Shown one piece after another: positions 879 to 63,575 of a stretch of DNA of 64,000 bases. How positions within the stretch are numbered: position 1 is the first letter of the stretch; each line of letters opens with the position of its first letter. Made by a program: the position numbers and the translations under genes. The DNA is taken from contig CAYHPR010000002.1 in assembly GCA_964358895.1 (NCBI GenBank), forward strand, positions 30,773 to 94,772. Direction: 5' to 3'. Under the pieces are notes generated by a model, which was not told the origin of the DNA, did not search any database, and was given only the letters and a program-made list of their open reading frames with translations. This DNA is from Candidatus Micrarchaeota archaeon (lineage in GTDB: Archaea; Micrarchaeota; Micrarchaeia; CABMEP01).

Positions 879-1600
879 TTATTTTCCAAATCGTCTATGT
901 CTTTGTCTAAACTCGGAGATTGCTTTTTCAAAATCCTCTTTAGTTACGTCAGGCCAGAGCTTAGGGCAGAAATAAAATTCACTGTACACCGATTGCCAGG
1001 GCAATAAGCCAGAAAGTCTTTGCTCACCTGCCGATCTAAATATCAAGTCTGGATCCGAAATGTCTGGAGCATAAAGGTATGAATTGAATGTTTTTTCATC
1101 TATCTGTTTTATCTTTCCTGATTTAACATCGACTGCCATACTGTTTGCAGCATCTATCAATTCCTGCCTCCCACCGTAACCTGCCAGAAAGACTACTGTA
1201 TATTTTTTGTTTTTTCCAGTTAATTTTTCTATCTTATTTATTCGTTCAACTATGTCTTTTGGAAAAAGAGAAAGCTTACCGACCCATCTAATACTCACTT
1301 CTTTTCTTATTTTTTCAAACTCTTTGCTTTTTTCTATCCTATCCAAAAGGTTCCTGAATAATTTGAACAGTGCTTCGATTTCTACTTTTGATCTGCTAGC
1401 ATTTTCTGTTGAAAAGATCCAGATGCTAAGTGTCTTGACACCTAAATCCTTACACCATTTAACAACGTCCTTAAACTTCTCAGTACCTGCGATATGTCCC
1501 TCTGGGATTGACTTTCCGTGTTCCTTGGCCCATCTCCGGTTTATGGTCTAAAAATTCCATCCGGGATTATGCAAACATGTAGTTCTTTTGATTTTCCGAT
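879..1600 (-). CDS. uppS: cis-prenyltransferase (undecaprenyl/polyprenyl diphosphate synthase, UppS family), reading frame interrupted by a 14-nt insert at 1541..1554
   Basis: The C-terminus RSAGEQRLSGLLPWQSVYSEFYF..LWPDV..RQRHRRFGK matches the UppS signature. Homology continues upstream (NRRWAKEHGKSIPEGHIAGTEKF..IWIFSTENASRS) past the TTG used by the ORF track. The far N-terminus KSKELHVCIIPDG lies in another frame. No ATG/GTG/TTG start is available; ATC at 1600 lies 5 nt after AGGTG. Confidence 0.7.
1541..1554 (-). other. Candidate 14-nt BHB/BHL-type intron inside the uppS coding sequence
   Basis: The RNA CCGG-AUGG-AAUUUUUAGA-CCAU-AAA-CCGG forms an outer helix, a 4-bp central helix, a 3-nt bulge and a loop. 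Excision restores CCG GAU GGA AAC CGG AGA UGG, which reads PDGNRRW. Confidence 0.45.
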
Positions 1601-2281: not shown

Positions 2282-2941
2282 AAAATAACCTATCAAAGCT
2301 GAAGAGATAGTGCAGATCATATTTGACGTTGACTTATTACCTATCCCCATTTCTTCAAAGATTCCTGCAATTGTATCGAATACACTTCCTAAGAAGCCAG
2401 CTATTGCAATATAAAAAATAAATGACGGATCGAAGTTATACAAAAAATAAGCAATCACTCCGATTATAAGTGCTCCGATAAAAGAAAGAAATGTTCCAAG
2501 TGCAGATATTGCTCCAGATGTACCTGCTCTGACACTTTTTAAATTTTTCAGAGAAATTGGCTTTCCTGAAAGCACGCCGAGTTCTGATCCAAATTTATCA
2601 GAAAGAGCTCCAGCAACTGAAGTTACATATGCGGCAATCCAAACTGGCGAATTCGTCAAATAAAATGCAGCACAACATAAAGTTGGGATTGAACCATTAG
2701 AAATGACATTATGCCACCCTCTCTCGTGCTCATAAACGCCTTTCTCTTTCTTTTCCTCATGTCTATACTTCGTTGCGATGACACTGATAAATAAAAATAA
2801 GAGAAGAAGTAGGATATTAGCTAACGCGTAACTTTTAGAAGTGAAAATGACGACTAAACCAATAATTAGGGAAGCAACGAAACCAGGAGTATCTAATAGA
2901 AGCGCTCTAACCAAATTATCACTTATCTGTTGTTTGTTCAC
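2267..2941 (-). CDS. DUF92/COG1836-family integral membrane protein (VTE6-like isoprenoid-phosphate kinase family)
   Basis: Multi-TM protein with GALSDKFGSELG and SGAISALGT motifs resembling the DUF92 DTxASExG / GxxSxxGT pattern. It lies next to uppS. Confidence 0.5.
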   Translation of the reverse strand: MNKQQISDNLVRALLLDTPGFVASLIIGLVVIFTSKSYALANILLLLLFLFISVIATKYRHEEKKEKGVYEHERGWHNVISNGSIPTLCCAAFYLTNSPVWIAAYVTSVAGALSDKFGSELGVLSGKPISLKNLKSVRAGTSGAISALGTFLSFIGALIIGVIAYFLYNFDPSFIFYIAIAGFLGSVFDTIAGIFEEMGIGNKSTSNMICTISSALIGYFLIRL

Positions 2942-3947
2942 CTATTCCTCTAACTGACAACTTACTGTCTTTTACATCGAATGAAATATTTGTAAACTTT
3001 GGTATAAGCCACATACAGGTTTTAGCATGTTGAGTAAGTTCTGGAACTGAAATTGATGACTCTCCATTTGCTAGCGCCATAAAAATAAGAAGCTGGTCTG
3101 ACATCCATCTATCGACAGTCGCTTGATTTGATATTTCCTTCTTCAGATCGAGCGCAACAGATCTACCAAGATCCTCTGATTTCAGACCAATTTTACCGAG
3201 ACTAGAAACACCAACTACTGTATTCTGAAATTCGGCCCAAAGAGTCAGTCCGGTGCCTGGAGATTGGGAGGACATAACAATTTTCTGTATCGAAGCGTCT
3301 GGAAGAACACTTTTTACTGCACTTATTTGTCGGTCGGCTACGTCTTCTTTAAGATTCGATAAAGCACAAACTCCCTTTATTCCATACAATAATCCTTTGT
3401 CATTAATCTCTATACCTGCCAGTTTTGAAGGATGTACTTCTATAGTCGTTGACCCTCCGCCGCGCGGATACCAGCCAAGCGAATCAACAAAAGAAACGAT
3501 CTTTGCTCCGAACCTTGCCGTAAGAGGTATGAACACGTTTCTGTAGAAATCAGTTGTTGGAGACCAGGCCACATGCGTTCCTCCAGTTAGTTTCAGCACG
3601 GATTTTTCTTTTCCGAATAGCAATACCGGAACCAATGACTGCGCTAAAAGAGTTACAGAGCCTGCCGTACCGATATCGAACGAATACTCGCCTTGTTTGA
3701 TCGCTTTTGGCGAAAAGCCCAGTTCCTGGGAACCTATTGATGCGCCCGTAACTACTGCATCGGTTATTTTAGCCATCGCCTGCACGCAAGTAAGGTGCTG
3801 CGGCTGAAGACCTGGTTTCGTACGGCCTGCTCGGATGTTCTTGATAACGAACGGTTTGCCTAGAATTGCAGATAAAGATAGAGCAACCCTTAAGATCTGG
3901 CCCCCTCCCTCTTCATAACTGCCGTCAATTTCAATAATATCTGTCAT
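2919..3947 (-). CDS. rtcA: RNA 3'-terminal phosphate cyclase
   Basis: N-terminus IEIDGSYEEGGGQILRVALSLSAILGKPFVIKNIRAGRTKPGLQPQHL is the RtcA signature; 342 aa is the typical length. Confidence 0.9.
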   Translation of the reverse strand: MTDIIEIDGSYEEGGGQILRVALSLSAILGKPFVIKNIRAGRTKPGLQPQHLTCVQAMAKITDAVVTGASIGSQELGFSPKAIKQGEYSFDIGTAGSVTLLAQSLVPVLLFGKEKSVLKLTGGTHVAWSPTTDFYRNVFIPLTARFGAKIVSFVDSLGWYPRGGGSTTIEVHPSKLAGIEINDKGLLYGIKGVCALSNLKEDVADRQISAVKSVLPDASIQKIVMSSQSPGTGLTLWAEFQNTVVGVSSLGKIGLKSEDLGRSVALDLKKEISNQATVDRWMSDQLLIFMALANGESSISVPELTQHAKTCMWLIPKFTNISFDVKDSKLSVRGIGEQTTDK

Positions 3948-4180: not shown

Positions 4181-5440
4181 ATGGACCTTAAAAAACTGTA
4201 TTATAAATCAAAAATTTCCGGCGTTGGCGGAAGGATAAAAGAGATACCCGAATCCTTCATTGTTCAAGAGATAGGGCCCACAGGAAATACGTATTATACT
4301 GATGCAGTATTAGAAAAGAGCAAAACAGTAGAAAATTTCCTGCACATCGTTTTACAAAAGAAAAATTGGTCAACTGAAGATGCAGTCGCACGTGTTGCAG
4401 AGGCGTTAGGTATAAATCATAAAAGATTCTCTTGGTCTGGAACAAAAGATAGACGTGCAATAACTACTCAACTTGTTTCAGTATTTGGATTGAATGAAAA
4501 ACAAATAGAAACCATGGATAAATTGGAACTAAAGGATATTGCTGTCCTAGGCTATTGGGGAGCAAAAGAAAAAGTTAAATTCGGACAGCACATTGGAAAC
4601 AGATTCAAAATAATCCTGACAGATTCTGATCCGGATTCAGATCAACTGATTAGGGAGATCTATACAGATTTGGGGGGCAAGTTTCCAAACTATTTTGGAC
4701 CGCAGAGATTTGGGAAAAAAAATAATAATCATATTATTGGAAAAAGAATTATTCAAGGTAACTTCTACGAAGCAGTAATGCTTTTCCTTACTGAAACCGA
4801 AGAAAATGAAAAAGAAGAAATTGCTAGTGTAAAAAAAGAACTAAAAGATACGAAAGACTTCAAAAAAGCTATTGAAAGCTTTCCGAGAAATATGCGCCAT
4901 GAAATCAGAATGTTGGAGCACCTGAATAAAAAACCTGGAGATTTTGTTGGAGCACTTCGTGCGATACATCGAAGTGTTTCACTTAGATTTATACATGCTT
5001 ACCAATCATACTTGTTTAACAGAGTGTTAAGTGATAATCTAGAAAAAATAGAAGAACGTAAGCAGAGAGGAGGAGAAAGGGTAGAAGATAGTAAGAGTCT
5101 GAATAGCATAGGAGATGATAAGAACTTTGATTCTTACTGTGGGACAAATTCTTATGGATTTCCTGATATCGAACAGGCGGGGACAGCTTGGCAGACTAGT
5201 AATATTATAGGTTACGATACAAAGATAACTGAAGAAGAAGCTGAATTATTGGAAGATGAAAATATTTCTAAGGATGATTTCAAAATAAGATCCGTACCTG
5301 AGTTATCATCCAAAGGATCTGTAAGAACGATGCTTGTTCCGATTAAAAATTTTACATATTCAAATGCAGCATTCACATTTGAATTACCTAAAGGCGCTTA
5401 TGCTACTTCAATGTTAAGAGAATTTATGGATAAAAAATAA
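4181..5440 (+). CDS. truD: tRNA pseudouridine synthase D (TruD/Pus7 family)
   Basis: GTKDRRAITTQ catalytic motif; FPNYFGPQRFG; 419 aa. Confidence 0.9.
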   Translation: MDLKKLYYKSKISGVGGRIKEIPESFIVQEIGPTGNTYYTDAVLEKSKTVENFLHIVLQKKNWSTEDAVARVAEALGINHKRFSWSGTKDRRAITTQLVSVFGLNEKQIETMDKLELKDIAVLGYWGAKEKVKFGQHIGNRFKIILTDSDPDSDQLIREIYTDLGGKFPNYFGPQRFGKKNNNHIIGKRIIQGNFYEAVMLFLTETEENEKEEIASVKKELKDTKDFKKAIESFPRNMRHEIRMLEHLNKKPGDFVGALRAIHRSVSLRFIHAYQSYLFNRVLSDNLEKIEERKQRGGERVEDSKSLNSIGDDKNFDSYCGTNSYGFPDIEQAGTAWQTSNIIGYDTKITEEEAELLEDENISKDDFKIRSVPELSSKGSVRTMLVPIKNFTYSNAAFTFELPKGAYATSMLREFMDKK

Positions 5441-8879: not shown

Positions 8880-10200
8880 ACTCTTAAAATCAACACTTCC
8901 TGTACTTCCAGTGGTCTTGTGAACTACCGCCGATTAAAATCGGTGGCTTCCTCTTTCATTAAAGGAATTTGCTGACGAAACTTTTTATCAGTTTTGTCAG
9001 TATCGGTTTCTTCTCTGAGAGGCTTGACTTCGGACAGTTCCTGCCCTATTTTGCTCAACGCTCGATTGAGTATGTTTATGGCTGCATTGTGATCTCTGTC
9101 CAATGTAAGTCCACAATAACTGCATTTGTGAATCCTGTTCCACAACTTCTTTGGACTTTCTCCCACTTTTCCGCAGCCACTGCATGTCTGAGTTGTTCCT
9201 CTTGGCTCAACCCTTACCAACTGGATACCGGCACTCGCAGCCTTGTAATCCAGCATCTGTAAGAATCTTGACCAGGATGCATCGTTTATGTTTCTTGCAT
9301 TGTATGATATTTTGATTATTCCTGATCTCAAGAGCTTCCACAGCAATAATATCATGACTGTTAACATAATGTCTCGAAAGTTTATGGAGAAAATCATTTC
9401 TCTGATTGTAGATCTTTTCGAATTGTCTTGCAACTTTAATACGTTGTTTCTGCCTGTTGGCGGATCCTTTCTTCTTTCTAGATAATATTTGTTGTAATAC
9501 CTTAAACCCCTCAAATCCAACAGTCATGAATTTTGGATTATTTACGTGGTTGCCAACACTGTCAGAGGCAAAGTGCATAATCCCAAGATCTATGCCTACT
9601 GCTTTTGTTGCTTTTTCTGCGTGTAATCTTGAATTGTCTTTTTCACATTCAACAGAAATTGAAACATACCATTTGCCTGATGGATATTTTTTGACAGTAA
9701 CTTGTTTCATCTTTCCATCGACCTCCCTGTGCACCCTCATGGGAATTTCTCCAATCTTTGATAGGTACAGCTTCTGATATCTTTTCCCTGTTGAAATCAG
9801 ATGGAAGCCTGACTGATTGTATACGAACGTCTTAAACCATTCCTTCCCTTTGAACCTCAGTCTGCCTACTTTCTTTCCGTTTTTCTTCAGCTTGGTCAAT
9901 GCCCTTAAATTTGAAAAAAGCCTATAGCATTCATATTGAAGAACTTTAGAATAAACCTGACTCAAATCCGGATTCTCTGTTTTGATTTTTGGAATTGAAT
10001 TCTGCAGTGCTGAGCTATCTGGCTTCTCTTGCTTCCGAAGACCTTCAAGCATCTTATTGTAAACAAATCTACAGCTATCGAGGACTGATTGCATTCGTTG
10101 CTCCTGAACCTTTGATGGATAAAGACGGAATTTGAATGCTTTTAGCACGTATTAACGTCGAAAAATCTATTTATATAGCTTGACAGACCCTTCACAGCCG
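8880..10200 (-). mobile_element. Stand-alone tnpB insertion element (IS1341-like, no tnpA seen); ends not defined
   Basis: TnpB without an adjacent Y1 transposase. There is a hairpin CCGCCGATT-AA-AATCGGTGG at the tnpB 3' end (8927..8950) and a CCGGTGATCCGG palindrome upstream of the start (about 10200). Confidence 0.45.
8924..10148 (-). pseudogene. tnpB: TnpB (IS200/IS605-family OrfB, RNA-guided nuclease), split by a frameshift near 9300-9320
   Basis: ORF 9207..10148 carries the N-terminal MLKAFKFRLYP, RuvC-I GIDLGI and RuvC-II IIAVEAL. ORF 8924..9520 continues in another frame with NINDASWSRFLQMLDYKAASAGIQLVRVEPRGTTQTCSGCG...CSYCG...DRDHNAAINI (zinc ribbon plus RuvC-III). Confidence 0.8.
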
Positions 10201-17406: not shown

Positions 17407-17408
17407 AG

Positions 17409-17481
17409 TGGGGTCGCTGAGATTTGAACTCAGATCACCAGCTCCCAAAGCTGGTAGCATGCCAAGTTAGCCCACGACCCC
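17409..17481 (-). tRNA. tRNA-Pro (UGG), uninterrupted
   Basis: Reverse complement GGGGTCGTGGGCTAACTTGGCATGCTACCAGCTTTGGGAGCTGGTGATCTGAGTTCAAATCTCAGCGACCCCA folds as a cloverleaf, with anticodon loop TTTGGGA. Confidence 0.9.
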
Positions 17482-17531
17482 TTAAGAATAAATACTCTGG
17501 TTATGTTTTTAACCTTATAGAAGAGGAGAAA

Positions 17532-18461
17532 ATGTTAAATAAAGAAGTGAAAAAAGCTGCTGAAATAATTAAAAACGGAGGGCTTGTTGCTTTCCCTACT
17601 GAAACAGTTTATGGTCTTGGTGCATCTGCACTAAATAGCATAGCAGTTGAAAAAATTTTTAAGATAAAGGGGAGGCCGTCTGATAATCCATTGATTGTAC
17701 ATATAGGAACTGAACAGCAACTTGAGTTGCTTACTTATCCTCTTGATTTAATATCTAGAAAACTGGTCCGAAAATTTTGGCCTGGACCGCTTACATTAGT
17801 ACTTCGTAAGAAAGAAGCTGTACCTGACAACGTTACTGCAAGACTTGGCACAGTTGCAGTTAGAATGCCTGCACATGAAACTGCACGTCTGCTTGCTAAA
17901 TTAGCTGGTCCGATCGCAGCACCAAGTGCGAATAAATCTGGGAAACCAAGTCCGACATCTATAAAACATATTTTAGAGGATTACACCAAAAAAGAATTAA
18001 CAAAAATAGGGGCGATCTTAGATGGAGGAGATACGCAACATGGAATTGAATCGACAGTTTATGACCCTATTAAAAAAAGAATATTGCGGCCCGGCACTAT
18101 CACTCTGAAGCAGATACAAGAAATAATCCCTGAAGCAGCTTATTCCTCGGCCGTATCCCTGGTCCCGGCTTCGCCAGGTATGAAATACAAACATTATTCG
18201 CCTAAAGCTGAACTTATCCTTTTCACAGGAAATTTGAAAGCTATAGATGAAATATTCAAGCTGATTAAAAATGAACAAATTGCAATATTGAAAATTGATA
18301 GAACAAAGAATTCGGCAAAGACATTATTTGCGAAACTAAGACTATTTGATGAACGAAGAATCAAAACAATTTTGTGTAAGGGGATTGAAGAAGAAGGGAT
18401 TGGATATAGCATCATGGACAGATTAAAAAAGGCTTCAACACAGATTATTGAAGTCGGATAA
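17532..18461 (+). CDS. sua5: L-threonylcarbamoyladenylate synthase (Sua5/YrdC/TsaC)
   Basis: GGLVAFPTETVYGLGA, KGRPSDNPLIVHI, and a Sua5 C-terminal domain. The start is at MLNKEV; the upstream ORF-track extension overlaps tRNA-Pro. Confidence 0.9.
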   Translation: MLNKEVKKAAEIIKNGGLVAFPTETVYGLGASALNSIAVEKIFKIKGRPSDNPLIVHIGTEQQLELLTYPLDLISRKLVRKFWPGPLTLVLRKKEAVPDNVTARLGTVAVRMPAHETARLLAKLAGPIAAPSANKSGKPSPTSIKHILEDYTKKELTKIGAILDGGDTQHGIESTVYDPIKKRILRPGTITLKQIQEIIPEAAYSSAVSLVPASPGMKYKHYSPKAELILFTGNLKAIDEIFKLIKNEQIAILKIDRTKNSAKTLFAKLRLFDERRIKTILCKGIEEEGIGYSIMDRLKKASTQIIEVG

Positions 18462-19641: not shown

Positions 19642-19765
19642 GCTTCGGTCGTCTAGTCCGGTTAAGGATCTTGGCCTTTCGTACAACTTTTAGTAAAAGT
19701 TTGATCAAACTTGACTAAATTTGTAAAGTTAGCCAATGACCCGGGTTCAAATCCCGGCCGGAGCA
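19642..19765 (+). tRNA. tRNA-Glu (UUC) with a 49-nt intron at 37/38 (19682..19730)
   Basis: GCTTCGGTCGTCTAGTCCGGTTAAGGATCTTGGCCTTTCG[49 nt]AGCCAATGACCCGGGTTCAAATCCCGGCCGGAGCA. Anticodon stem TTGGC/GCCAA, loop CTTTCGA. Confidence 0.85.
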
Positions 19766-32897: not shown

Positions 32898-33442
32898 TTT
32901 TAGACCTATGATATTTGTTTTTTAATCTATTAATTCTTTCTATTCTGATGTTTTACTTGAATTTTATACAGCTTACGCTAGCAGTCTGCGAAATTAATTA
33001 AGAAAAAAGAATAGGATGAGTGAAGAACACGGAAACTTGAGAAATAGGAGATTTAGTATTGGACTGGCACACAAATCGCTTGCGCTCTTTGCTTACACCA
33101 CCAACCTATCAAACCCGTCTGCTACGGGCTCCCACAGCTGACTCGTTTTGGGAGATCCTTCGACCTTAGATGCTTTCAGGTCTTATGATCTGGCGCGTGG
33201 CTGCCCGGCGATGCTTGTTACAACCGGTATACTAGAGGCGCCTACCCTCTGTTCCTCTCGTACTCAGAGGATATTACCCTCAGTCAACAACACTCCCAGT
33301 AGATACTACCGTACTGTCTCGCGACGTACTGAACCCAGCTCGTGTACCTCTTTAACGGATGTACAACCCGACCCTTGGAAGCTCCTGCACTTCCAGGATG
33401 AGATAAGCCGACAGCGATGTACCAAGCCGCGGGGTCGATATG

Positions 33443-33490
33443 TACGCGATAGTCTAATTAGTGTTTGACGAAAACTAGGCTATCGCAGGG
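33443..33490 (-). other. 23S insertion 1 (48 nt, ORF-less) inside the H89-equivalent GAGT|CATATCGAC block
   Basis: Conserved CGATATG..TACTCTCGCCCGCG is split by a hairpin, GCGATAG..CTATCGC. The boundary is ambiguous by the repeated TAC. Confidence 0.6.
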
Positions 33491-33513
33491 TACTCTCGCC
33501 CGCGACGAGCCTG

Positions 33514-33860
33514 TTTTGGGTCATTCCAGCAAAAATAAAATTACGAATAATTAATTTACGAATTTGATTTGTTATGAATAGAATTATTGACGTAGCTAAA
33601 CGTCAAAATTTACGAGGTTTATTCGTAAATTATCCATAAAGAATCCAGAGTTTCGACTAAAGCATTTTTGAAAAAAATTCGAGAATCAAGAAAAATTCAA
33701 GATTAAATCTAAGAGTAACTCTAAGAGTATTTCTAAGATAAAATCTACGATTATATCTAGATATCTAAAATTATTTTCATATTGTTTGCGCTTTAGGTGT
33801 GGTAGTAAGAGGAGATCAAACTAAACCACACTCTGGACTCCAAAATTTTCACTGAAACGA
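33514..33860 (-). other. 23S insertion 2 (347 nt, ORF-less, AT-rich) splitting GGGG(G/A)UAA|CAGGCU
   Basis: Exon halves ..gagcctg (33507-33513) and ttacccccgggg (33861-) rejoin to the universal CCGGGGATAACAGGCTGAT-like block. There is no ORF of 60 aa or more; internal TTACGAAT and TCTAAGAGTA repeats are present. Confidence 0.7.
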
Positions 33861-34029
33861 TTACCCCCGGGGTAACTTGTCTGACAGATTGAGCCCTTAT
33901 CAAAAGGATTTCAATGTTCATTAAGCCCGACTTTCGTCTCTGCGAGACATACTGTTAGTCTCACAGTCAGTCCTGCATTTCTCTTTAACCGTTATCATCC
34001 GACGTTCAGCGATGATGAGCGTCATTCGC

Positions 34030-34129
34030 TGCTTTGCCTCATCATAAACTTTTAGGAAATCTTTCGAAAATAAATTTCGAAAAATTGTTTTATAAAAAGT
34101 TTCTGAGGTTGTACATAATATCATTCGCA
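34030..34129 (-). other. 23S insertion 3 (about 100-150 nt, ORF-less, long AT hairpin); boundaries uncertain
   Basis: CCTCA..AAACTTTT....AAAAGTTT..TGAGG hairpin flanked by the direct repeat TCATTCGC. The region is longer than the corresponding E. coli or haloarchaeal segment as recalled from memory. Confidence 0.5.
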
Positions 34130-34536
34130 CATCACTGATCACTTTCGTTTCTGACCGGATTAAGCAGAACATTGGGCGCCTTTATTTCCTTATCGAAGGC
34201 GTACTGCCCCAGCCAAACTATCCATCTGCAGCTGTTCCTTTTCAGGTTAGAAACACAAAAATTGTAAAGTGGTGTTACATTGGTGCATCCACCTCGGCCG
34301 CGACCAAGGTTTCTACGCTCCCACTTACGCTATGTAACAATTCCTATATTTCAACAACAGACTATAGTAAAGCTCCACGGGGTCTTCGTTTCCCACTAGG
34401 AGTCCTCCGCATATTCACGGAGCAGTGAGTTCACCAGGTCCCTCTCTGGGACAGTGGGGGATTCGTTATGCCCTTCATGCAAGTCGCCAATTAAGCGACG
34501 AGGTATTACGCTACCTTAAGAGGGTCAGATTGGTAC

Positions 34537-34567
34537 AAAATTTCTATTAGAAATTTTCTAGAAATCT
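34537..34567 (-). other. 23S insertion 4 (about 31 nt) in the GGTAAACGGCGG|CCGTAAC-equivalent block
   Basis: aaaatttctattagaaattttctagaaatct interrupts otherwise conserved sequence immediately 5' (RNA sense) of CTTAAGGTAGCG. Confidence 0.5.
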
Positions 34568-35617
34568 CGTGTTACCCCCGCTCTTCGCCAGCCCTTTGTG
34601 CCCTTGAACGAGCGTATCGGGTACTGGTAGTGAGCAGGCATCGCCTTCCATACTAGACATTGCTATTTTGCGTAAAGCTGTGTTTTTGGTAAACAGTCGA
34701 TCCCCCCAATTCACTGCGACCTGCGCATGCAACTTGCGTCACAAACGCAGGCAATCCTTGTACCGAAGGTACGGATCTATTTGGCCGAATTCCCTAGAGA
34801 GAGTTCCCCTGCCACGCCTTAGAATTTTCATCTTGCAGCACCTGTACTGGATCTTGGTACGATCACAACGAATCGGATAGAGAAATTTTTCACGGACCCA
34901 AAGCGTACGCCAAACCGCCTAAGGGCGGCTATTCGCATATTATACTGCTTCTCCTCATAATGAGACTCCACAGTACTATGTTGCTTAAACAGAGTCTCCC
35001 CTGCTCAGCTTAGCTTCAGATGTCAATCTCTACCTTGTGTTGCCACGTCTATCGTTGTGGCTGCCGAATATTAACGGCATTCCCTTTCATGTCCTAGTAA
35101 TTGGCTGGACATTTAGGATCGGCTAACTCTTGGCTGTCGAACGTTGCCAAGAAAACCGAGTGCTTTCGGCGTTCAGGATTCTAACCTGAATTTGCTGCTA
35201 CTGACGCCAGGATATTTATTGCAAAACGGTCCATAGGAGCTCACGCCCCTACTTCTGCCCGTTCCGCACACCTTCCTACCAGATTACGTATTTTGTACGT
35301 ACTCTTGGGTATCAGAAATCAGTTTAGTCCCGTACATTTTCGGAATGTGTACTTCTTCTAGTAAACTAGATCGAGCGGTCCGCTATTACGCGTTGCTTAG
35401 ACGATGGCTGCTTCTGAGCCTACGTCCCGCTTGTCTAGAAATGAACACTCCTTGTGACTTCACACTTAACTGATATTTAGGGTCTTTAACCCAAGTTTCG
35501 GTCGTTCCCGTCACGGCACACTAGCTTACCCAGTGCAACCCGACTCTCAACTTCTACAATGAACAAAGATTCGGAGTTTGACAAGAAAGCAGACTCTTTC
35601 GAATCTATTCTCCCTAA

Positions 35618-36547
35618 TCAGTGCTCTACCCCTTGTTCCATCTCCATTGAGGTCATCCTGATGGATGCTTCGGAAGGAACCCGCTTTCGCGGACTTAAAA
35701 GGCTATTAAGTTCGTTTTTCTTCCGGATAACCGGAATATGAGTATAAAATCTTTTTACATTTTCAAGACCATTAATATACAAATCATAAGTTGATCTGTT
35801 TTTGTATGGTCCTGCTGAATTTATTGGGAAAGTTGAAAGTGCTTTCCTAATAAATTCTAAAGATTCTTTGTTTGTCTGCGTGATTTTTAGCTTATATCTC
35901 CCTGTTTTTTCAACTGTTTTAACAGAAGGGCAATATCCTTCTGCGTCGAAAAAACCAGCAATATATTTACTCCACAACTTCTTATTTTCAGCTATCATTT
36001 TTGGTGTCGACCACGTTGTTTGTCTTGTCGGCATTTCAAAAACTTTTTCGAAAAAGATAACTAAAGGTTTAGATGAAAACCTTAGTCTGTAACTTTCTCT
36101 ATCTTTTTCTATAACTCCTTTAATTCGGAAGTTCATCTGAAAAATCTTGCTTAAATATTTCAACCAAAATTCAGCATATTTTCCGCTTTGAGTTATTACG
36201 ATATCGTTTTTTCTCCCAGTTTTTCTGAGATTTCCGTCCCTCAAAGCACCTACAAGATAAGCTACATCTTCGTTTATTTTAGGAATCTTTATTCCTTTAT
36301 TGCTAAGAGACCTAATGTCTTTGGCAATTGTTAGGATTTCACTTTTTTCCTTTTCGTTCGAAATTTCCAAAAGCAAATCTAACGGAATTGCAACCCCTGA
36401 AAGATAACTATATTTTGTAGATCTTTTCAATTTGCCGAGTTTTTCGAAGTGAGTTTTAACAATCTCTTCACAACCTGTTATGAAAAGATTCTCACCTTTG
36501 AAATATTCAACAAGAAGCTGTTTATCACGCATACAGTTTTTACTCAA
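35618..36547 (-). CDS. LAGLIDADG homing endonuclease (double-motif), intron-encoded in 23S
   Basis: Motifs VAYLVGALRDGNL and YIAGFFDAEGYC. The last 22 codons of the ORF-track model read into the downstream rRNA exon. The likely ATG start is at 36532. Confidence 0.85.
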   Translation of the reverse strand: MSKNCMRDKQLLVEYFKGENLFITGCEEIVKTHFEKLGKLKRSTKYSYLSGVAIPLDLLLEISNEKEKSEILTIAKDIRSLSNKGIKIPKINEDVAYLVGALRDGNLRKTGRKNDIVITQSGKYAEFWLKYLSKIFQMNFRIKGVIEKDRESYRLRFSSKPLVIFFEKVFEMPTRQTTWSTPKMIAENKKLWSKYIAGFFDAEGYCPSVKTVEKTGRYKLKITQTNKESLEFIRKALSTFPINSAGPYKNRSTYDLYINGLENVKRFYTHIPVIRKKNELNSLLSPRKRVPSEASIRMTSMEMEQGVEH

Positions 36548-36561
36548 TTAGCCCTTTAAAT
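35684..36561 (-). other. 23S insertion 5 (878 nt) with LAGLIDADG ORF, splitting GCGAUAG|CGGGUUCC (E. coli GAGAUAGCUGGUUC block)
   Basis: Flanking sequences rejoin to the conserved ..CAATCGAACATCGCGATAG+CGGGTTCCTTCCGAAGC. Confidence 0.7.
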
Positions 36562-37554
36562 CTATCGCGATGTTCGATTGGACTTTCACCCCTATTCCAA
36601 GGTCACCCAAGTGGATATACCAACACTGGTTGCGGCCCTCCACCAATCGTTAGATCGGCTTCAGCCTGCCCCGGAATAGATCACAACCGCTTCGGGTCAT
36701 ACAATAGTGATCAAACGCATTTTCATACGTCCCGCCTCGTTCAGCACTGCGCGGAATTGCTTTCGCTACGTCTTTCGACTCACCACTACCGTATACTCCC
36801 TGGCTCTTGATTCGAGAAGTACGATGCAACACTGGTCCATTTTCCTGGTCCACTGCCTTGCGACAGTTTGCTTCGGAAAACTTCGACCCTTTCGTGCCAC
36901 ACCAACCTGTAACCATTCAGTTTCAGGCTCTTTTCAAAGGTCTTTCGACCTACTTTTCAACGTTCGCTCACGCTACTAATTCGCTATCGGTCTTGGATAC
37001 TTGTTTAGGATTAGAGGTTGATCCCCCCAACTTCGTGCTCCATTCTCGAGGAGCACTACTCACATCGTTACCCTCCTTTACGTTTTGCTTACGGGACTAT
37101 CACCCTTTGTCGTAAGACTTTCCAGTCTACTTCAGCTCCTGTAAAGGATAGTTGTAACGCCCACATCCACTACATATTACTATGCAGAGTTCGGTTTGTC
37201 CTGTCCGGCTTTCGGTCGTCTTACTCACCGGATCCCAATTGGTTTTTCTTCCTTCGGTTACTGAGATATTTCAATTCACCGAGTTTTTGTCCATTCCTGG
37301 ACGCACAGATATCTTCGGTTCAACGTTCGCATGCAACTCCCCGAAGCTTTTCGCAGCTTGCCACGTCTGCTTGAAATCCAAGCCTGGCCATCCCCTGAAT
37401 GGCGTATTAACTTCTCACTGTTCTCGTGTCCTTCACTCAAACCTATAAATCAGCGTCACAGCACATTCTCATGTGCTCAGCAATCCTTTGTCCAATCATT
37501 CGGACAAAATCATACTTCAACGAAACTTCGACGCTATTAACGTCAAAGTTTCTA

Positions 37555-37769
37555 TGGACTCGGCGTGATTCCCGCATAAGAACCTATGGTTCTTATTATC
37601 TCCTAGGCAATTGCCTAGATCGTTTCGGTTTCGAACACGCAGCCTCCTCCTGTTTTGGAAACTTTTTTTGTTAAGAAGTTTCATCATCAAACCAGCCGTT
37701 TTTTGATGAAACTTTTTCTTACAAAAAGTTTCTTGCAAAGGAGGCGCTCTACCATTGAGCTACGAGCCC
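37555..37769 (-). tRNA. tRNA-Ala (UGC) in the 16S-23S spacer, with two introns (82 nt at 37/38: 37652..37733; 61 nt in the T-loop: 37569..37629)
   Basis: Exons GGGCTCGTAGCTCAATGGTAGAGCGCCTCCTTTGCA / AGGAGGAGGCTGCGTGTTCGAA / TCACGCCGAGTCCA assemble to a 72-nt cloverleaf with the G3:U70 Ala identity pair and T-loop TTCGAAT. Confidence 0.8.
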
Positions 37770-38281
37770 AGTATTAACACTTCAAGGTCCTTCAGTGGAC
37801 ATATATGCTCTGAATTTTTTAGAAAAAAATCTAACCAAAAACAAGTTTTGATCAAACTTTCAAGAAAAAATTGTTCAACGTTTGAATTAAGTATCAAACA
37901 ATTGACGTTTTTAACGTCAATATTTAGCAATTTGCATTGCTAATCAAATTAATTACGCACACGACTCTCACAAATTTTTATTTTCATAAAATATTGGAGG
38001 TGATCTATCCGCAGGTTCCCCTACGGATACCTTGTTACGACTTAGCCCCCCTCATAAAAATTTGGTTCGAGGCTACCAATTTCTCAATAGCGCCTCACCA
38101 GACTCTCACTTGGGTGACTTGACGGGCGGTGTGTGCAAAGAGCAGGGACCGATTCACCGTACGATTGTGACATACGATTACTAGGGATTCCAGCTTCATG
38201 AGGGCGAGTTTCAGCCCTCAATCCGAACTTAGACTAGGTTTCGGGGATTAGCTCCACCTTTCGGTGTGGCAACCCATTGTC

Positions 38282-38911
38282 CTAGCCATTGTAGGCCACG
38301 TTAGGCTCTCGCGAGGTAAATTTAGGATGATAAGTATAAATTTTACGAAAATAAGCATCAGTATTATTGAAACCATTTATTTGGAGTCCATACATTTTGC
38401 CTGAATTCCAAGTAGAGAATTTCAATCCTAGATCTTTCAATAGGAAAGCCAGTTCATCTCTTATTGTTTTATTTACTACATGCATTGCAATTCTTGGATA
38501 GATGTATGTTCTTCTTTCTTTTTTTACTACTTTTCGTGTGATGCAACCTTCTGCATCCATCCACCCTCCAATATACGATGCCTTAGTTTTACTTCCTGAA
38601 TTCATGATCCATTCTGGCGTTTTCATTTGAAAAGTTTTCGTCCTTCCTTCAGGAACACCCAGTTTAATCAAGAAATTGTAGAGTTTTTTCGACCAAATTC
38701 TTATTCTATAACAAATATTACCTAAAGCAGTTTTCATCACATAAATTTTTGCTTTTATGTTCAACGTTTCTTCAAATAGTTTTGTTACAGTTTGTAAAAA
38801 TTCGAAAGAAGGATCTACAATATTGATTTCATAGTTACCTTTTCCATCTTTTGAAAGGCTTCCGTCGCCCCCAATTAGACCTACCAAATAAGCCAAAGAT
38901 TTTCTTTTCAT
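38282..38911 (-). CDS. LAGLIDADG homing endonuclease (double-motif), intron-encoded in 16S
   Basis: Motifs LAYLVGLIGGDGSL and ASYIGGWMDAEGCI. The ATG (MKRKSLAYL) is at 38911. The frame is open over the entire intron, and the last 6 codons lie in the exon. Confidence 0.85.
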   Translation of the reverse strand: MKRKSLAYLVGLIGGDGSLSKDGKGNYEINIVDPSFEFLQTVTKLFEETLNIKAKIYVMKTALGNICYRIRIWSKKLYNFLIKLGVPEGRTKTFQMKTPEWIMNSGSKTKASYIGGWMDAEGCITRKVVKKERRTYIYPRIAMHVVNKTIRDELAFLLKDLGLKFSTWNSGKMYGLQINGFNNTDAYFRKIYTYHPKFTSREPNVAYNG

Positions 38912-38992
38912 TATCTTTGTCAAATTTTTGTAGTTTTTAAAGGTTATGAGACACCTAACAACCGGTGATCCTAAGGATATTTTACCTCGCAA
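38300..38992 (-). other. 16S insertion 1 (693 nt) with LAGLIDADG ORF, splitting GGGCTACAC|GTGGCCTACAATGG
   Basis: Intron termini are complementary (CTCGCGAGGTAAA / TTTACCTCGCAAG). The exons rejoin to the archaeal GGGCTACACGYGGGCTACAATGG block. Confidence 0.75.
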
Positions 38993-39015
38993 GTGTAGCC
39001 CGGGAGATTAGGGGC

Positions 39016-39145
39016 TTTAGCCGTCGATAGCAGTGTAAATATAACAACTGCCTGCCGGCTCCCAAAAATCTTTGGCTAACATGTTCTGCGACATATTTGT
39101 GCAAAGTGCTGTGTTTAATGTGGTGTTGTGATACCACTATCGACG
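39016..39145 (-). other. 16S insertion 2 (130 nt, ORF-less) splitting ..GGTCAGTATA|GCCCCTAATC.. (E. coli CATCATG|GCCCTTA block)
   Basis: Terminal inverted repeat GTCGATAG..CTATCGAC. The flanks rejoin to GGGGCATACTGACCTACCGTCGCC-like conserved sequence (plus-strand view). Confidence 0.65.
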
Positions 39146-39259
39146 TATACTGACCTACCGTCGCCCTCTCCTTCCTCTGTTTTAACAACAGCGGTTCCTT
39201 TAGAGTGCCGCTTCCCCGGAGGAAAACGTTGCAACTAAAGATGAGGGTCTCGCTCGTTT

Positions 39260-39848
39260 CCAGACTCAATGGTAACGCCACAAAAGAAATAAGCATGATT
39301 AATGTTTAGTTTTATTTTCAGATTTTTCAGGTCTGTATTTTATTAATGAAAGAAAATTTTCAACGTCTCTGATCCAGAGATCTTTTCCCTTTCGTTTAGT
39401 ATAGAACCCAAGATGTTCAATCAGTAACTGATCTTGGAAGTTTGTGTTATGAATAATACTTCCATCTCCGTCTGATATGTACATCCCCCTTAGAAAAGAT
39501 GCGGATAAATTATTTTTTCTTCCAAATATCTCATTTTGATTTTTTAGAGTGTTTAAGAAGAAAGTCTTAATTTTGTGATGAGAGAACCAGATAGCTCTAT
39601 CTTCACTTACAATCTTTTCAGGAGGAACTAATCTAAGTTTGAGAACCATTTCGACAAATTTTTCTTGTTTATCAAAATTTCCAAATACTCCTACACTCTG
39701 ACGAGTACGTCTGAGTTTCCAGAATCCGATAAATTCTGCTAATTCGTTTGTCAATTTTAATTTCATATTCTCATCTTAGTTGTTTAGTTCTTTATTCTTT
39801 CTTTTTGTTTCTTTTGTGGACATTCACCAAAGAGTTTACTGGACTTAA
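39260..39848 (-). other. 16S insertion 3 (589 nt) with a short LAGLIDADG-like ORF, splitting GGTTAAGTCCAG|AAACGAGCGAGACCC
   Basis: The flanks rejoin to the universal GTTAAGTCC.GCAACGAGCGCAACCC block; the boundary is known to within a few nt. Confidence 0.7.
39299..39766 (-). CDS. LAGLIDADG-like protein, short (155 aa), first motif degenerate
   Basis: The second motif FLRGMYISDGDGSI is intact. The N-terminal LAEFIGFWKLRRT occupies the first-motif position but lacks the acidic residue. Confidence 0.65.
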   Translation of the reverse strand: MKLKLTNELAEFIGFWKLRRTRQSVGVFGNFDKQEKFVEMVLKLRLVPPEKIVSEDRAIWFSHHKIKTFFLNTLKNQNEIFGRKNNLSASFLRGMYISDGDGSIIHNTNFQDQLLIEHLGFYTKRKGKDLWIRDVENFLSLIKYRPEKSENKTKH

Positions 39849-40208
39849 CCAGACAGCTCACGCCACGAGCTGACGATGGCCATGCACCACCTCTCGGCTC
39901 GTTAGGTAAGATCTTTAGTCTGACCTTCATCCTGCCGTCGCTCCCGGTAATATTCCCGGCGTTGAATCCAATTAAACCGCAGCCTCCACCCCTTGTGGTG
40001 CTCTCCCGCCAATTCTTTTAAGTTTTAAGCTTGCGCTCGTACTCCCCAGGTGGCAGACTTAACGCTTACGCTACGGCACTGCCAATCCTCGAAGGAAAGG
40101 CAACACCTAGGTCTGCATCATTTACTGCTAGGGCTACATGGGTATCTAATCCATTTCGTTCTCCTAGCCTTCGCACCTCACCGTCAGACATGTTTTAGCC
40201 AGACGCCT

Positions 40209-40260
40209 AAACGCTTTCTTTCAGTTTCTTTGATGAAACTTTTCTTTTAGAAAGAAAGTT
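40209..40260 (-). other. 16S insertion 4 (52 nt, ORF-less) splitting GGCGA|AGGCGTC
   Basis: The flanks gacgcct / tcgccgc rejoin to the conserved GCCTTCGCC block. The insert is an AT hairpin containing AAAAGTTTCATCAAAGAAAC (RNA sense). Confidence 0.7.
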
Positions 40261-40467
40261 TCGCCGCTGTGGGTCCGTACAGGATTAACGGATTTTACTC
40301 CTACTCTATACGTACCTCTGGCCCCCCCCATTCTCAAGCTCGGTAGTACTCTCTGCACGCCTTTCGGTTAAGCCGAAAGATTTCACAGAGAACACGCCGA
40401 ACCGGCTACGTGCGCTTTAAACCCAATATACGTGGATACCACTCGGGCTGCCGGTATTACCGCGGCT

Positions 40468-40512
40468 TCCAGTTTCATTACGATGTAAAACGTGTAATTT
40501 CGTAAGGAAATG
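40468..40512 (-). other. 16S insertion 5 (45 nt, ORF-less) inside the universal GTGCCAGC|AGCCGCGGTAA (515-533) block
   Basis: attaccgcggct[45 nt]gctggcac, with an internal TTACGA..TCGTAA hairpin. Confidence 0.75.
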
Positions 40513-41224
40513 GCTGGCACCGGTCTTACCCAGCCCTTATTCTATCTGCTATTTACACAAATCAAAAGACCCTCTAAAAGAGGATCACTCGGAATTTCTT
40601 TGTCACGCTTTCGCGCATTGCAAAATTTTCGCGCCTGCTGCATCCCGTAGGACTAGGGCCCTTGTCTCAGTGCCCTTCTGGGGGCTCCAACTCCCATTGC
40701 CCCTACCGATAATCGGTTTGGTGAGCCGTTACCTCACCAACAGCCTAATCGGCCGCAGTCCAATCGTTAAGCCCACACCATACAATTCTGGTGCAGATTT
40801 CAGTCAGGAGGCGTTCCAGATCTCCAGACCTATAATGTATTATCCTCAATTTCTCGAGGTTATCCACTTCTAAACGTTATGTTGACCACGTGTTACTCAG
40901 CCGTGTGCCACGACTCCATAAGAAGTCGTCGACTTGCATGGCTTAGCCAAATTCCGATAGCAGTACCCTCCAGCAAGATCAACTGGAATTACGTCGATGT
41001 TTGTCGACGAGTATATTTATTTCTGTATGTTTTGACGAGCTCAAACGCTGTTGCTAACTTATCAGTTAGCGGTCGAGCACATATGTCCCTTGCTGAACCT
41101 TGAAGTGTATATCGAATCCAAACTTACGTCTTGGATTCTCATGGTAATAGTGTACGCTGCAGTGGAAACATGCAATTCATTGCACGAGAAAAAGACCCGT
41201 ACTCCTCTTGGCCGTTCTACAGCT

Positions 41225-54304: not shown

Positions 54305-54441
54305 CGAGCCCGAAGGGATTTTCGGAACAATCGGAAAGTTTTGTCGAACTTTTCCAAAAGTTCGTTCGAACCCTCAACCTCTCTGGACCGGTTATTGTGT
54401 TGGTCCGAAGCCAAGCGCTCTGTCCGTTGAGCTACGGGCCC
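54305..54441 (-). tRNA. tRNA-Arg (UCG, tentative) with a T-loop intron (46 nt, 54319..54364) and a short insert 3' of the anticodon loop (about 18 nt, 54382..54399)
   Basis: Exons GGGCCCGTAGCTCAACGGACAGAGCGCTTGGCTTCGGACCAA / GAGGTTGAGGGTTCGAA / TCCCTTCGGGCTCG give a stem CTTGG/CCAAG, loop CTTCGGA, and T-arm GAGGG-TTCGAAT-CCCTT. The exact boundaries of the first insert are uncertain. Confidence 0.65.
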
Positions 54442-54687: not shown

Positions 54688-55407
54688 ATGGTTACGTATT
54701 CTAAACCAATTAATTCTAGAATGACTAAAAGATTTGCTGAGTTCATAGGTATTTTGATAGGAGACGGACATTTAGAGTATCGTAAAAGAGGAAGTTATTT
54801 TAAGATAACAGGAAATCCTAAAACCGAAATAGATTATTACGAGCACGTTGCTAGACTTGCATCCGAAATTTTAAAGAGAAAGATTAAACCGAGAATAATG
54901 GATACTGGGCGGTCAATAGGGATTTCTTTCGGTTCTAAAAGATTAGGTGAGTTTTTATTTAGACTAGGTTTTCCTAAAAAGAATAAATGTCATACAGTTA
55001 AAATTCCTAAAAAGATTCTCACAAAAAGAAATTTATCCATAGCTTGTTTAAAAGGAATTTTTGATACCGACGGTTGTCTTACTATTAAAAGAAGATACAG
55101 AGAAGATCCGTATTATCCTACGGTTAATATTACGCTAGCGAACAAACCTTTAATCATTCAAATTTCAAAAATACTTGATAGGTTGCGAATGGAACATTGT
55201 AGAGTTTTAGATAAGTGTTATTATGATGAACGAACTAAAAAATTTTATACAAAAAGTTTCATTTATTTGTACGGATTTACAAGAGTTCACAAATGGTTCA
55301 AAGTGATAGGCTCAGGTAATCCGGCAACTATTCTAAGATATAAGGATAAGGTGAAGGAGCATTATAGCGGAGAAAGGCTAATTCAGTTTAATAAAAGAAA
55401 AAAGTAG
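54688..55407 (+). CDS. Free-standing LAGLIDADG homing endonuclease (double-motif)
   Basis: Motifs FAEFIGILIGDGHL and ACLKGIFDTDGCL. It has its own GGTGAG-N3-ATG ribosome-binding site and lies on the strand opposite to the flanking tRNA genes. Confidence 0.85.
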   Translation: MVTYSKPINSRMTKRFAEFIGILIGDGHLEYRKRGSYFKITGNPKTEIDYYEHVARLASEILKRKIKPRIMDTGRSIGISFGSKRLGEFLFRLGFPKKNKCHTVKIPKKILTKRNLSIACLKGIFDTDGCLTIKRRYREDPYYPTVNITLANKPLIIQISKILDRLRMEHCRVLDKCYYDERTKKFYTKSFIYLYGFTRVHKWFKVIGSGNPATILRYKDKVKEHYSGERLIQFNKRKK

Positions 55408-55410
55408 AAG

Positions 55411-55598
55411 TAGCGGGAGATGGAGACTCAGGAATTAGATTTGTCTAAATTCCATTTGAATTCGACGGACATAAGACGGCTCTTAAGTCCTCCATCGATC
55501 TCCGGGTGACTCAGAAAGCTTTCTCTCTTATGAGCTTCGCCTTCTACAAGTTTTAACTTGTAAAATCCGGCGGGCACTCCAAGCTACCCTACCCCGCT
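55411..55598 (-). tRNA. Initiator tRNA-Met (CAU), apparently split into five exons by four inserts
   Basis: AGCGGGGTAGGGTAGCTTGGAGTGCCCGCCGG[31]GCTCATAA[21]CCCGGAGATCGATGG[31]TTCAAAT[30]CCATCTCCCGCTA. It has A1:U72, three G:C pairs closing the anticodon stem, and 75 nt after removal of the inserts. Confidence 0.65.
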
Positions 55599-55621
55599 AC
55601 GAAATAAGTATCTTCGTGTAG

Positions 55622-55630
55622 ATTTATATT
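55622..55630 (-). promoter_or_regulatory. TATA-box-like element upstream of initiator tRNA
   Basis: Minus-strand AATATAAAT is centred about 28 nt upstream of the tRNA 5' end. Confidence 0.4.
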
Positions 55631-55693
55631 CTCTTGCGATCTCTGCGCGAGAGGCTACGTAGGTTATTTATACTTTGAAAAAGTAAATTAAAT

Positions 55694-56356
55694 ATGGCTA
55701 CAGTAGCATTGGCGACACAGGTCCCCAAAAATAATAATAATGGTAATTCACATAGGATTGCTACAAGCATGATTCTTAGAGATAGTTCAAAACTCATGAA
55801 ATTAAAAAAAGAATATGAGAGTAAACACAATTTTTCGTTAACCTCATTCGTTTCCCATCCGTTAAGCTACTTACCAATACTCAGCACATTGATCAGCCGA
55901 TTTGGAGACCTTAGTGGAAAACATGTACTCGAAATAGGCAGTGGGGCTGGAGAATTCCTTTATGTACTCAATAGTTGTGGCGCTATAACGCTTGGGATCG
56001 ACTGGACTGGAGCTCTAGGAAACTTTTCAAAACAAATCGGAGTGAAAACATTAACGGATGATGTCTTTAGTCTTATTGGTTCTCCATACAAGTTTGATGC
56101 AGTCATAAGCAAGGGCTTCTTGACTCCAACAATTCTTGATCCAGAATTCGATGATAAATTCGAGATTAATCTTGAGAAATTTTTGAAGCTTACATACAAC
56201 TGGACAAGCGACGGTGGAGTAGGTATTCATTTGTATCCTACAGCAAGAGAGATCTCAAACCAATTATGTGCTTCGGCAGGATACAGCTCCAGTCTAACAA
56301 GGCAGATTTATTATAAAAACAATCCGTATAAAACAATTCTATTATTGGAAAAGTAA
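55694..56356 (+). CDS. SAM-dependent methyltransferase-like protein
   Basis: VLEIGSGAGEF motif I; FDAVISKGFL. Start uncertain. Confidence 0.6.
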   Translation: MATVALATQVPKNNNNGNSHRIATSMILRDSSKLMKLKKEYESKHNFSLTSFVSHPLSYLPILSTLISRFGDLSGKHVLEIGSGAGEFLYVLNSCGAITLGIDWTGALGNFSKQIGVKTLTDDVFSLIGSPYKFDAVISKGFLTPTILDPEFDDKFEINLEKFLKLTYNWTSDGGVGIHLYPTAREISNQLCASAGYSSSLTRQIYYKNNPYKTILLLEK

Positions 56357-58626: not shown

Positions 58627-58750
58627 GCCAGGGTAGCTCAGTTTGGTTAGAGCGCCAGACTCATAAGATCTTAAAACTCAAGACCGATCGATGTCTGTCA
58701 TCGGTTTCTAAGAAATCTGGAGGCCGAGTGTTCAAATCCCTCCCCTGGCA
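58627..58750 (+). tRNA. Elongator tRNA-Met (CAU; could be tRNA-Ile2) with a 49-nt intron at 37/38 (58666..58714)
   Basis: GCCAGGGTAGCTCAGTTTGGTTAGAGCGCCAGACTCATA[49]ATCTGGAGGCCGAGTGTTCAAATCCCTCCCCTGGCA, with one U:C mismatch in the T-stem. Confidence 0.8.
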
Positions 58751-63441: not shown

Positions 63442-63575
63442 GCAGGGGTGGCGGAGCTTGGAAATCGCGCAAGACTTAAGACCTTAAGCGATCTCGCACA
63501 AAACTTTCTTAGAATAAAGTTTGTAGGAGATCTTGTGCCTTAGTGGCTACGTGGGTTCAAATCCCACCCCCTGCA
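63442..63575 (+). tRNA. tRNA-Leu (UAA) with a 49-nt intron at 37/38 (63481..63529)
   Basis: GCAGGGGTGGCGGAGCTTGGAAATCGCGCAAGACTTAAG[49]ATCTTGTGCCTTAGTGGCTACGTGGGTTCAAATCCCACCCCCTGCA. It has a long variable arm and is 85 nt when mature. Confidence 0.85.

Follow-up and report, generated by a model that had tools for sequence, protein, structure and literature searches.

The 64,000-nt stretch of DNA analysed here (hereafter the window) carries on its minus strand what is in all likelihood a functional Micrarchaeota initiator tRNA-Met (iMet) gene that is interrupted by four short bulge-helix-bulge (BHB) introns, located at tRNA positions 30/31, 37/38, 53/54 and 59/60. This reading draws on the anatomy of the gene, the geometry of its splice motifs, the conservation of its exons, the orthology and covariation of two of its introns, and the conservation of its promoter. 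An initial annotation of the sequence had already proposed an archaeal initiator tRNA gene with four introns and five exons, and the sequence comparisons described below lend support to that proposal. The gene would raise the documented ceiling of introns per tRNA gene from three to four, and it would do so in an initiator tRNA. Since this tRNA is indispensable to the cell, its splicing must reliably handle micro-exons of 7 and 6 nt as well as overlapping splice motifs.

Anatomy of the interrupted initiator tRNA gene

Joining the five exons (Table 1) gives the 75-nt sequence AGCGGGGTAGGGTAGCTTGGAGTGCCCGCCGGGCTCATAACCCGGAGATCGATGGTTCAAATCCATCTCCCGCTA, which is identified as tRNA-Met(CAT) by ARAGORN and has a cloverleaf fold at −32.5 kcal/mol. 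Archaeal initiator tRNAs are distinguished by a CAU anticodon, an A1:U72 pair and three consecutive G:C pairs at 29-31:39-41. The spliced product has all of these, the three anticodon-stem pairs being G29-31:C39-41, and the cloverleaf with initiator hallmarks that the initial annotation described is thereby borne out. The other CAU tRNA of the window, in contrast, has G1:C72. As read from the sequence, CCA is not encoded at the 3' end of the iMet gene.

Every segment quoted in the initial annotation was found on the minus strand of positions 55411-55598, and its count of four inserts and five exons stands. However, its micro-exon sizes of 8 and 7 nt had to be corrected to 7 and 6 nt, because the BHB geometry moves two junctions by one base. 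The junctions originally placed at 38/39 and 60/61 are equivalent in sequence but do not fit the BHB motif, and 37/38 and 59/60 take their place; the spliced product is unchanged. The hairpins that had been noticed within the inserts turned out to be the intron-side helices of the BHB motifs. Likewise, the CTGAGTC ends common to introns 2 and 4 could be explained: TGAG is the strand that pairs with CTCA of the anticodon loop or TTCA of the T-loop, and it is followed by the bulge TC.

A TATA-box-like element, ATATAAAT, precedes the gene and sits inside a block (GAGAATATAAA..CACGAAGATA) that is conserved in the syntenic relative L004. Its role as a TATA box is assumed from the usual spacing of archaeal promoters. 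Downstream of the gene, the T-rich run TTTTTTCTTTT is a likely transcription stop. The unspliced locus produced no ARAGORN call, and no Rfam match was obtained in positions 55300-55700 either at the gathering threshold or at E ≤ 10. We do not regard this silence as evidence against the gene, since it is attributable to the extent to which the gene is disrupted.

Two other architectures were rejected. The five exons follow one another in order on a single strand over 188 nt, which leaves no place for a split or permuted tRNA gene. Group I and group II introns are families of catalytic RNAs with sizes of hundreds of nucleotides. Self-splicing introns of these types were discarded, as the inserts measure 21-31 nt and the region had no Rfam match at E ≤ 10.

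Table 1. Features of the window that are discussed in the text. A slash separates the two strands of a central helix and marks the splice site within a bulge.
Feature	Coordinates	Strand	Description
tRNA-iMet(CAU) gene, whole	55411..55598	−	188 nt; five exons (75 nt) and four introns (113 nt)
iMet exon 1	55567..55598	−	32 nt; acceptor 5' strand, D arm, anticodon-stem positions 27-30
iMet intron 1	55536..55566	−	31 nt; position 30/31; central helix CGCC/GGCG; bulges GG/A and AA/G; 10-bp intron stem
iMet exon 2 (GCTCATA)	55529..55535	−	7 nt; position 31 and anticodon-loop positions 32-37, including CAU
iMet intron 2	55508..55528	−	21 nt; canonical position 37/38; central helix CTCA/TGAG; bulges TA/A and TC/A; 5-bp stem
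iMet exon 3	55492..55507	−	16 nt; position 38, anticodon-stem 3' strand, variable loop, T-stem 5' strand
iMet intron 3	55461..55491	−	31 nt; position 53/54; central helix CGAT/GTCG; bulges GG/A and AA/T; 9-bp stem with one mismatch
iMet exon 4 (TTCAAA)	55455..55460	−	6 nt; T-loop positions 54-59
iMet intron 4	55425..55454	−	30 nt; position 59/60; central helix TTCA/TGAG; bulges AA/T and TC/T; intron stem of 6 contiguous bp
iMet exon 5	55411..55424	−	14 nt; position 60, T-stem 3' strand, acceptor 3' strand, discriminator A73
TATA-box-like element	55622..55629	−	ATATAAAT; −31 to −24 from the tRNA 5' end
T-rich run	55393..55403	−	TTTTTTCTTTT; begins 8 nt past the discriminator
tRNA-Arg(UCG) gene	54305-54441	−	two introns
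tRNA-Arg(UCG) intron	54383-54400	−	18 nt; about 41/42; central helix GGAC/GTCC
tRNA-Arg(UCG) intron	54319-54364	−	46 nt; 59/60; central helix TTCG/CGAA
Other CAU tRNA gene	58627-58750		
tRNA gene	17408-17481		
tRNA gene	19642-19765		
tRNA gene	63442-63575		
Archaeal rRNA operon	33033-40989	−	SSU 2,995 nt (model 1,478); LSU 4,390 nt (model 2,987)
LAGLIDADG ORF, SSU gene	38282-38992		
LAGLIDADG ORF, LSU gene	35618-36547		
Free-standing LAGLIDADG ORF	54688-55407	+	239 aa; between tRNA-Arg(UCG) and iMet
RtcA (RNA 3'-phosphate cyclase)	2919-3947	−	
TruD	4181-5440	+	
Sua5	17424-18461	+	
IS605-type OrfB/TnpB	9207-10148	−	

Splice motifs and the intron series in related genomes

With the splice sites placed after the second base of each 3-nt bulge, all four introns display a perfect central helix (4/4 bp) flanked by two 3-nt bulges, the intron stems being 10, 5, 9 and 6 bp long. 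BHB geometry thus holds for all four inserts after the two one-base shifts. Introns 1 and 3 have no exon-side helix and are of the relaxed hBH type; their central helices draw on nucleotides 25-28 and 48-51 that subsequently become part of the D and anticodon stems and of the T stem, respectively. Introns 2 and 4 acquire an exon-side helix of 5 bp, formed by the anticodon stem and the T stem, respectively, only after introns 1 and 3, respectively, have been removed. A generic BHB scan of the locus, which required a central helix of 4 bp and an intron stem of at least 4 bp, gave 9 matches compared to 8.6 +/− 3.8 in shuffled sequences, and is not discriminating when taken alone. We therefore turned to shuffles of the individual introns and to a blind splice-and-test search. 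When the introns were shuffled with the exons kept fixed, a perfect central helix combined with the observed stem was obtained in 0, 12, 56 and 8 of 200,000 trials for introns 1 to 4. The blind search covered the entire 9.5 kb of non-coding window sequence on both strands; all combinations of up to four BHB-shaped inserts were removed and the 5,268 resulting products were submitted to ARAGORN. At the iMet locus, the only tRNA-Met came from the removal of exactly these four inserts. The inserts are archaeal BHB introns, chance being excluded by the shuffles, the blind search and the match to uninterrupted orthologs.

These orthologs were collected by scanning genome and metagenome collections with a 22-nt probe that represents the 5' end of the gene and is blind to introns downstream of the D-loop. 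The probe identified 21 loci, to which synteny look-ups added further ones. The first 22 nt of exon 1 are identical in 20 or more Micrarchaeota iMet genes, and all species-representative genomes with the same 22 nt (10/10) belong to Candidatus Micrarchaeota/Micrarchaeia, as do the closest named homologs of the CDC48 protein encoded in the window. By these 22-mer matches the relevant lineage is Micrarchaeota (DPANN) rather than the Thermoproteales, to which the initial annotation had referred. The contig also matches assemblies from Hainich groundwater, and the rRNA operon of the window is archaeal. The iMet locus of the window is syntenic with those of L004, L030, L031 and L034, and the CDC48 proteins of the syntenic relatives are 77-81% identical to that of the window. 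The spliced product matches the uninterrupted iMet of L009, L011 and L015 at 73 of 75 positions, and the two differences make up a compensatory pair, A50-U64 for G50-C64. Since the intact orthologs differ at these two positions only, the inserts represent insertions and the exons are under selection.

The number of introns in the iMet gene varies considerably between the loci. Most loci, including the syntenic L030 and L034, have none. A single intron is present at 59/60 in L005 and at 30/31 both in L008, a complete chromosome, and in the syntenic L031/L032. Two introns (in the D-loop and at 59/60) are found in L004, which is syntenic and has the same promoter block, and three (30/31, 43/44 and 59/60) in L007 (JAHJBR010000076.1) and L012 (JBAYGV010000010.1). 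Four occur in the window gene only. In the complete chromosome OY970229.1, the sole gene matching the 22-nt probe itself has an intron. The intron content of the iMet gene thus changes quickly in this lineage. The same gene with 0, 1, 2, 3 or 4 introns in Micrarchaeia, and with 0 to 4 among syntenic relatives, constitutes a well-resolved natural series for the study of intron gain and loss.

Two of the four introns have orthologs. Intron 1 has counterparts in L031, L008, L007 and L012, and its identity to the L031 intron (84%) is above that of every shuffle. Across the five orthologs, 95% of the cells in the 30/31 motif are paired compared to 52% or less when the partners are slid, and 8 of 13 pairs are compensatory; the observed values were reached in 0 of 500 shuffles. 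The central helix itself covaries (CGCC/GGCG, CGCT/GGCG, CGTC/GACG). Intron 4 has an ortholog in L004 with an identity of 71%, which is likewise above every shuffle, and position 59/60 is also used in L005, L007 and L012. It should be noted that the 59/60 introns were compared by a table of their geometry and by the identity to L004, and that their MAFFT alignment was left out of the covariation analysis because its stems were misaligned. No iMet introns at 37/38 or 53/54 were found in relatives by the 22-mer scan, in the sole homolog of the neighbouring 220-aa protein, or in seven CDC48-based look-ups. Since introns 2 and 3 have no counterpart in any relative examined, their identification rests on single-sequence geometry together with the uninterrupted orthologs.

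Several of the related loci have peculiarities of their own. In L026 (approximately 3272-3672, plus strand), a syntenic relative with a CDC48 protein 81% identical to that of the window, the iMet 5' end AGCGGGGTAGGGTAG is followed by an insert of approximately 0.33 kb with an ORF of about 115 aa, and then by a partial second copy of the 5' end that runs into an otherwise uninterrupted iMet. The arrangement may represent a long intron that contains an ORF, or else an integration event that duplicated its target. In the three-intron genes of L007 (approximately 3562-3730, plus strand) and L012 (approximately 3463-3636, plus strand) the T-stem pair 50:64 is mismatched (U.C and U.U), an intronic GTTGG/GATGG copy adjoins the 3' strand, and one of the four central pairs is missing from the 59/60 motif. 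The uninterrupted iMet of L021 (approximately 1434-1508, plus strand) has C33 (GGGCCCATAACCC), where U33 is near-universal.

Alternative explanations and predicted processing

The inserts might have piled up in a decaying or redundant copy that the cell does not need, with an intact initiator gene elsewhere and little or no mature tRNA made from the present locus. Such a copy would be compatible with several observations: the sequence visible to us is 64 kb of a genome, one Micrarchaeota MAG has two iMet genes (L006, L013), introns 2 and 3 are unique to the window genome, and the motif of intron 2 hardly appears in the ensemble predicted for the whole precursor. We nevertheless consider this explanation improbable. 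None of the 75 exon positions is damaged, and the two that differ from the orthologs compensate each other, whereas the perfect splice-motif geometry in four of four inserts is not what decay would yield. Moreover, the promoter and the T-run are kept, the locus corresponds by synteny to the iMet gene of L030, L031, L034 and L004, and no second initiator-like sequence exists within the 64-kb window. A tRNA pseudogene was rejected on account of the intact exons, the compensatory T-stem pair and the conserved promoter block. Judged from its sequence, the locus is a real gene, and very probably a functional one.

Even in a functional gene the number of introns could be lower than four, if another parse applied, if inserts were retained in the mature RNA, or if two adjacent introns were removed as one. 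Two junctions are indeed ambiguous by one base, and the one further match of the blind search at this locus was a product with a 23-nt version of intron 2, which ARAGORN accepts as 'tRNA-SeC'. That version leaves an anticodon loop of 5 nt and was rejected, as was the merging of introns 1 and 2 or 3 and 4, by which the anticodon or the T-loop would be lost. Furthermore, the blind search gave no tRNA at the iMet locus from the removal of any one to three inserts among its 5,268 products, and no parse other than the four-intron one gives back the sequence seen in uninterrupted orthologs, which makes a smaller number of introns very improbable. We find it harder still to credit that the inserts are an artefact of assembly or a chimera of a mixed population. 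The source is a metagenome, and the matching ENA contig has low coverage (cov_3 in the contig name); however, an identical 188-nt locus came out of an independent assembly of another replicate, in a contig that matches the window at 99.93% over 6,086 nt, and misassembly would not give four perfect BHB motifs whose removal restores a tRNA.

The 188-nt precursor folds with z = −4.6, and a structure that contains the acceptor stem and all four BHB cores (−64.8) lies within 5 kcal/mol of the optimum (−69.6). In the predicted ensemble, the helix of intron 2 has a probability of 0.01-0.02 as long as intron 1 is present and of 0.56-0.58 after the removal of intron 1. On account of this rise, we infer an order in which intron 1 leaves the precursor ahead of intron 2; this order can be stated as a prediction of the present analysis. 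For introns 3 and 4 the predicted ensemble gave no clear order.

Transcription, the participating enzymes and a function in translation are likewise what we infer for this gene, and its processing may be envisaged as follows. Transcription of the 188-nt precursor would start from a TATA promoter belonging to the gene itself, and the introns would be excised by a broad-specificity splicing endonuclease (EndA), with both cuts for each intron falling within its 3-nt bulges. Introns 2 and 4 would become strict hBHBh' motifs once the neighbouring introns are gone, and the removal of intron 1 first would also prevent the 7-nt exon from being lost as a free oligonucleotide. The exons would then be ligated into the 75-nt tRNA by an enzyme of the RtcB type, with CCA addition as the last step. 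EndA and RtcB were not found among the 25 of approximately 52 window ORFs that were scanned. The enzymes are proposed because the phylum carries an epsilon2 EndA: this type is known in Micrarchaeota, and the Ca. Micrarchaeum enzyme cuts both strict and relaxed hBH motifs in vitro, including one at 59/60. Other genes observed in the window encode RtcA, TruD and Sua5, which act on RNA ends or in tRNA modification, and an IS605-type OrfB/TnpB.

Known multi-intron tRNA genes, intron origin and neighbouring genes

Positions 30/31, 37/38, 53/54 and 59/60 all belong to the published lists of non-canonical intron sites. The use of 37/38, 53/54 and 59/60 as intron sites was confirmed in the papers cited here. 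The maximum number of introns documented for a tRNA gene is three (PMC8450103, "up to three"; PMC4390854; PMC4033280, "a maximum of three"; PMC3239211, "one to a maximum of three"), as had been stated in the initial annotation. No tRNA gene with four BHB introns was found in the full texts that were searched. The iMet gene exceeds the published maximum by one intron, and its splicing mechanism would be the known one.

The three-intron genes of the Thermoproteales, such as tRNA-Glu(UUC) of Pyrobaculum calidifontis and tRNA-Pro(UGG) of P. islandicum, likewise contain short BHB introns at canonical and non-canonical sites. As in the window iMet gene, neighbouring introns can be so close to each other that one must go before the motif of the next can form, and the hosts have a broad-specificity EndA. 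However, these genes have three introns and belong to Crenarchaeota with an (alpha-beta)2 EndA, whereas the present one has four, belongs to Micrarchaeota (DPANN) and encodes an initiator tRNA. A precedent within the same phylum is the pre-tRNA-Pro(GGG) of ARMAN-2, in which introns at the same two T-loop positions, 53/54 and 59/60, likewise enclose exon 54-59 of 6 nt. Contrary to the initial annotation, exons as short as this one are therefore not beyond precedent. The relaxed hBH type seen in introns 1 and 3 is accepted by the epsilon2 EndA in vitro. Whereas one or two introns are present in the ARMAN-2 genes, the window gene has further ones at 30/31 and 37/38 in the anticodon arm and thereby a second micro-exon of 7 nt. 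The three-intron iMet genes of L007 and L012 share with the window the gene itself, the 5' 22 nt, the introns at 30/31 and 59/60 and the junction style GG/A...CGAA/ (slashes marking splice sites), but their third intron is at 43/44 and they have none at 37/38 or 53/54. Three BHB introns are also known from the nuclear tRNA-Ile(UAU) of Cyanidioschyzon merolae, which is eukaryotic and involves a different endonuclease.

The four introns fall into two pairs with respect to their junctions, each pair joining an older intron (1 or 4) with one that is specific to the window (3 or 2). Introns 1 and 3, both of 31 nt, have the common style CGNN-GG/A...GNCG-AA/, and introns 2 and 4 the common style YTCA-NA/...TGAG-TC/. 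The identity between introns 2 and 4 (0.60) is marginally above the shuffle maximum (0.57), and this was the only pair above shuffles among the four iMet introns and the three canonical introns of other window tRNAs; for intron 3 and the 30/31 introns the identity was not above shuffles. Intragenic transposition could account for the likeness of the junctions, but convergence could do so just as well: similar exon words have to be complemented by the intron strand, and an AA bulge is a frequent feature of introns in the Micrarchaeota genomes compared. A bolder scenario, which we put forward tentatively and regard as unlikely, would be that this gene encodes the only initiator tRNA of the organism and is the first tRNA gene with four introns, that intron 2 was recently copied from the 59/60 intron and intron 3 from the 30/31 intron by reverse endonuclease/ligase insertion at sites resembling the exon half of the parental BHB motif (YTCA-NA and CGNN-GG), and that splicing follows a fixed order so that the exons of 6-7 nt are not lost. 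If true, the lineage would show tRNA introns in the act of proliferating within a single essential gene.

ARAGORN and the Rfam tRNA model miss not only the iMet gene, but also the tRNA-Arg(UCG) gene with its two introns 1 kb away, which explains the gap in annotation. Incomplete tRNA sets of DPANN archaea have been suspected in the literature to point to undetected disrupted genes, and the two cases support the suspicion that "missing" DPANN tRNAs are of this kind. The spliced 73-nt product of the tRNA-Arg(UCG) gene matches an uninterrupted ortholog in L031. In L030 this gene has the 59/60 intron only, and in L034 an insert of approximately 250 nt follows the anticodon loop. The six tRNA genes of the window comprise Pro without introns, Glu, Leu and the CAU tRNA (elongator or Ile2) with one each, Arg with two and iMet with four. 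These approximately nine introns correspond to about 1.5 per gene, which, in this small sample, matches the most intron-rich Thermoproteales (71 introns in 46 genes; PMC8450103).

The rRNA operon of the window is also enlarged, both genes being considerably longer than the corresponding models (Table 1). Each contains a LAGLIDADG homing-endonuclease ORF, and several inserts of approximately 50 nt are present. The extra segments are probably rRNA introns, of either the BHB or the group I type; no group I match was obtained in the rRNA region with Rfam at the gathering threshold. The third LAGLIDADG ORF of the window is free-standing, and its stop codon is located 3 nt from the 3' end of the iMet gene. 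It is 28% identical to the LAGLIDADG protein of the SSU intron (E 3e-13). The ORF is not present at the corresponding site of L030, L031 and L034, in which 60-370 nt separate the two tRNA genes.
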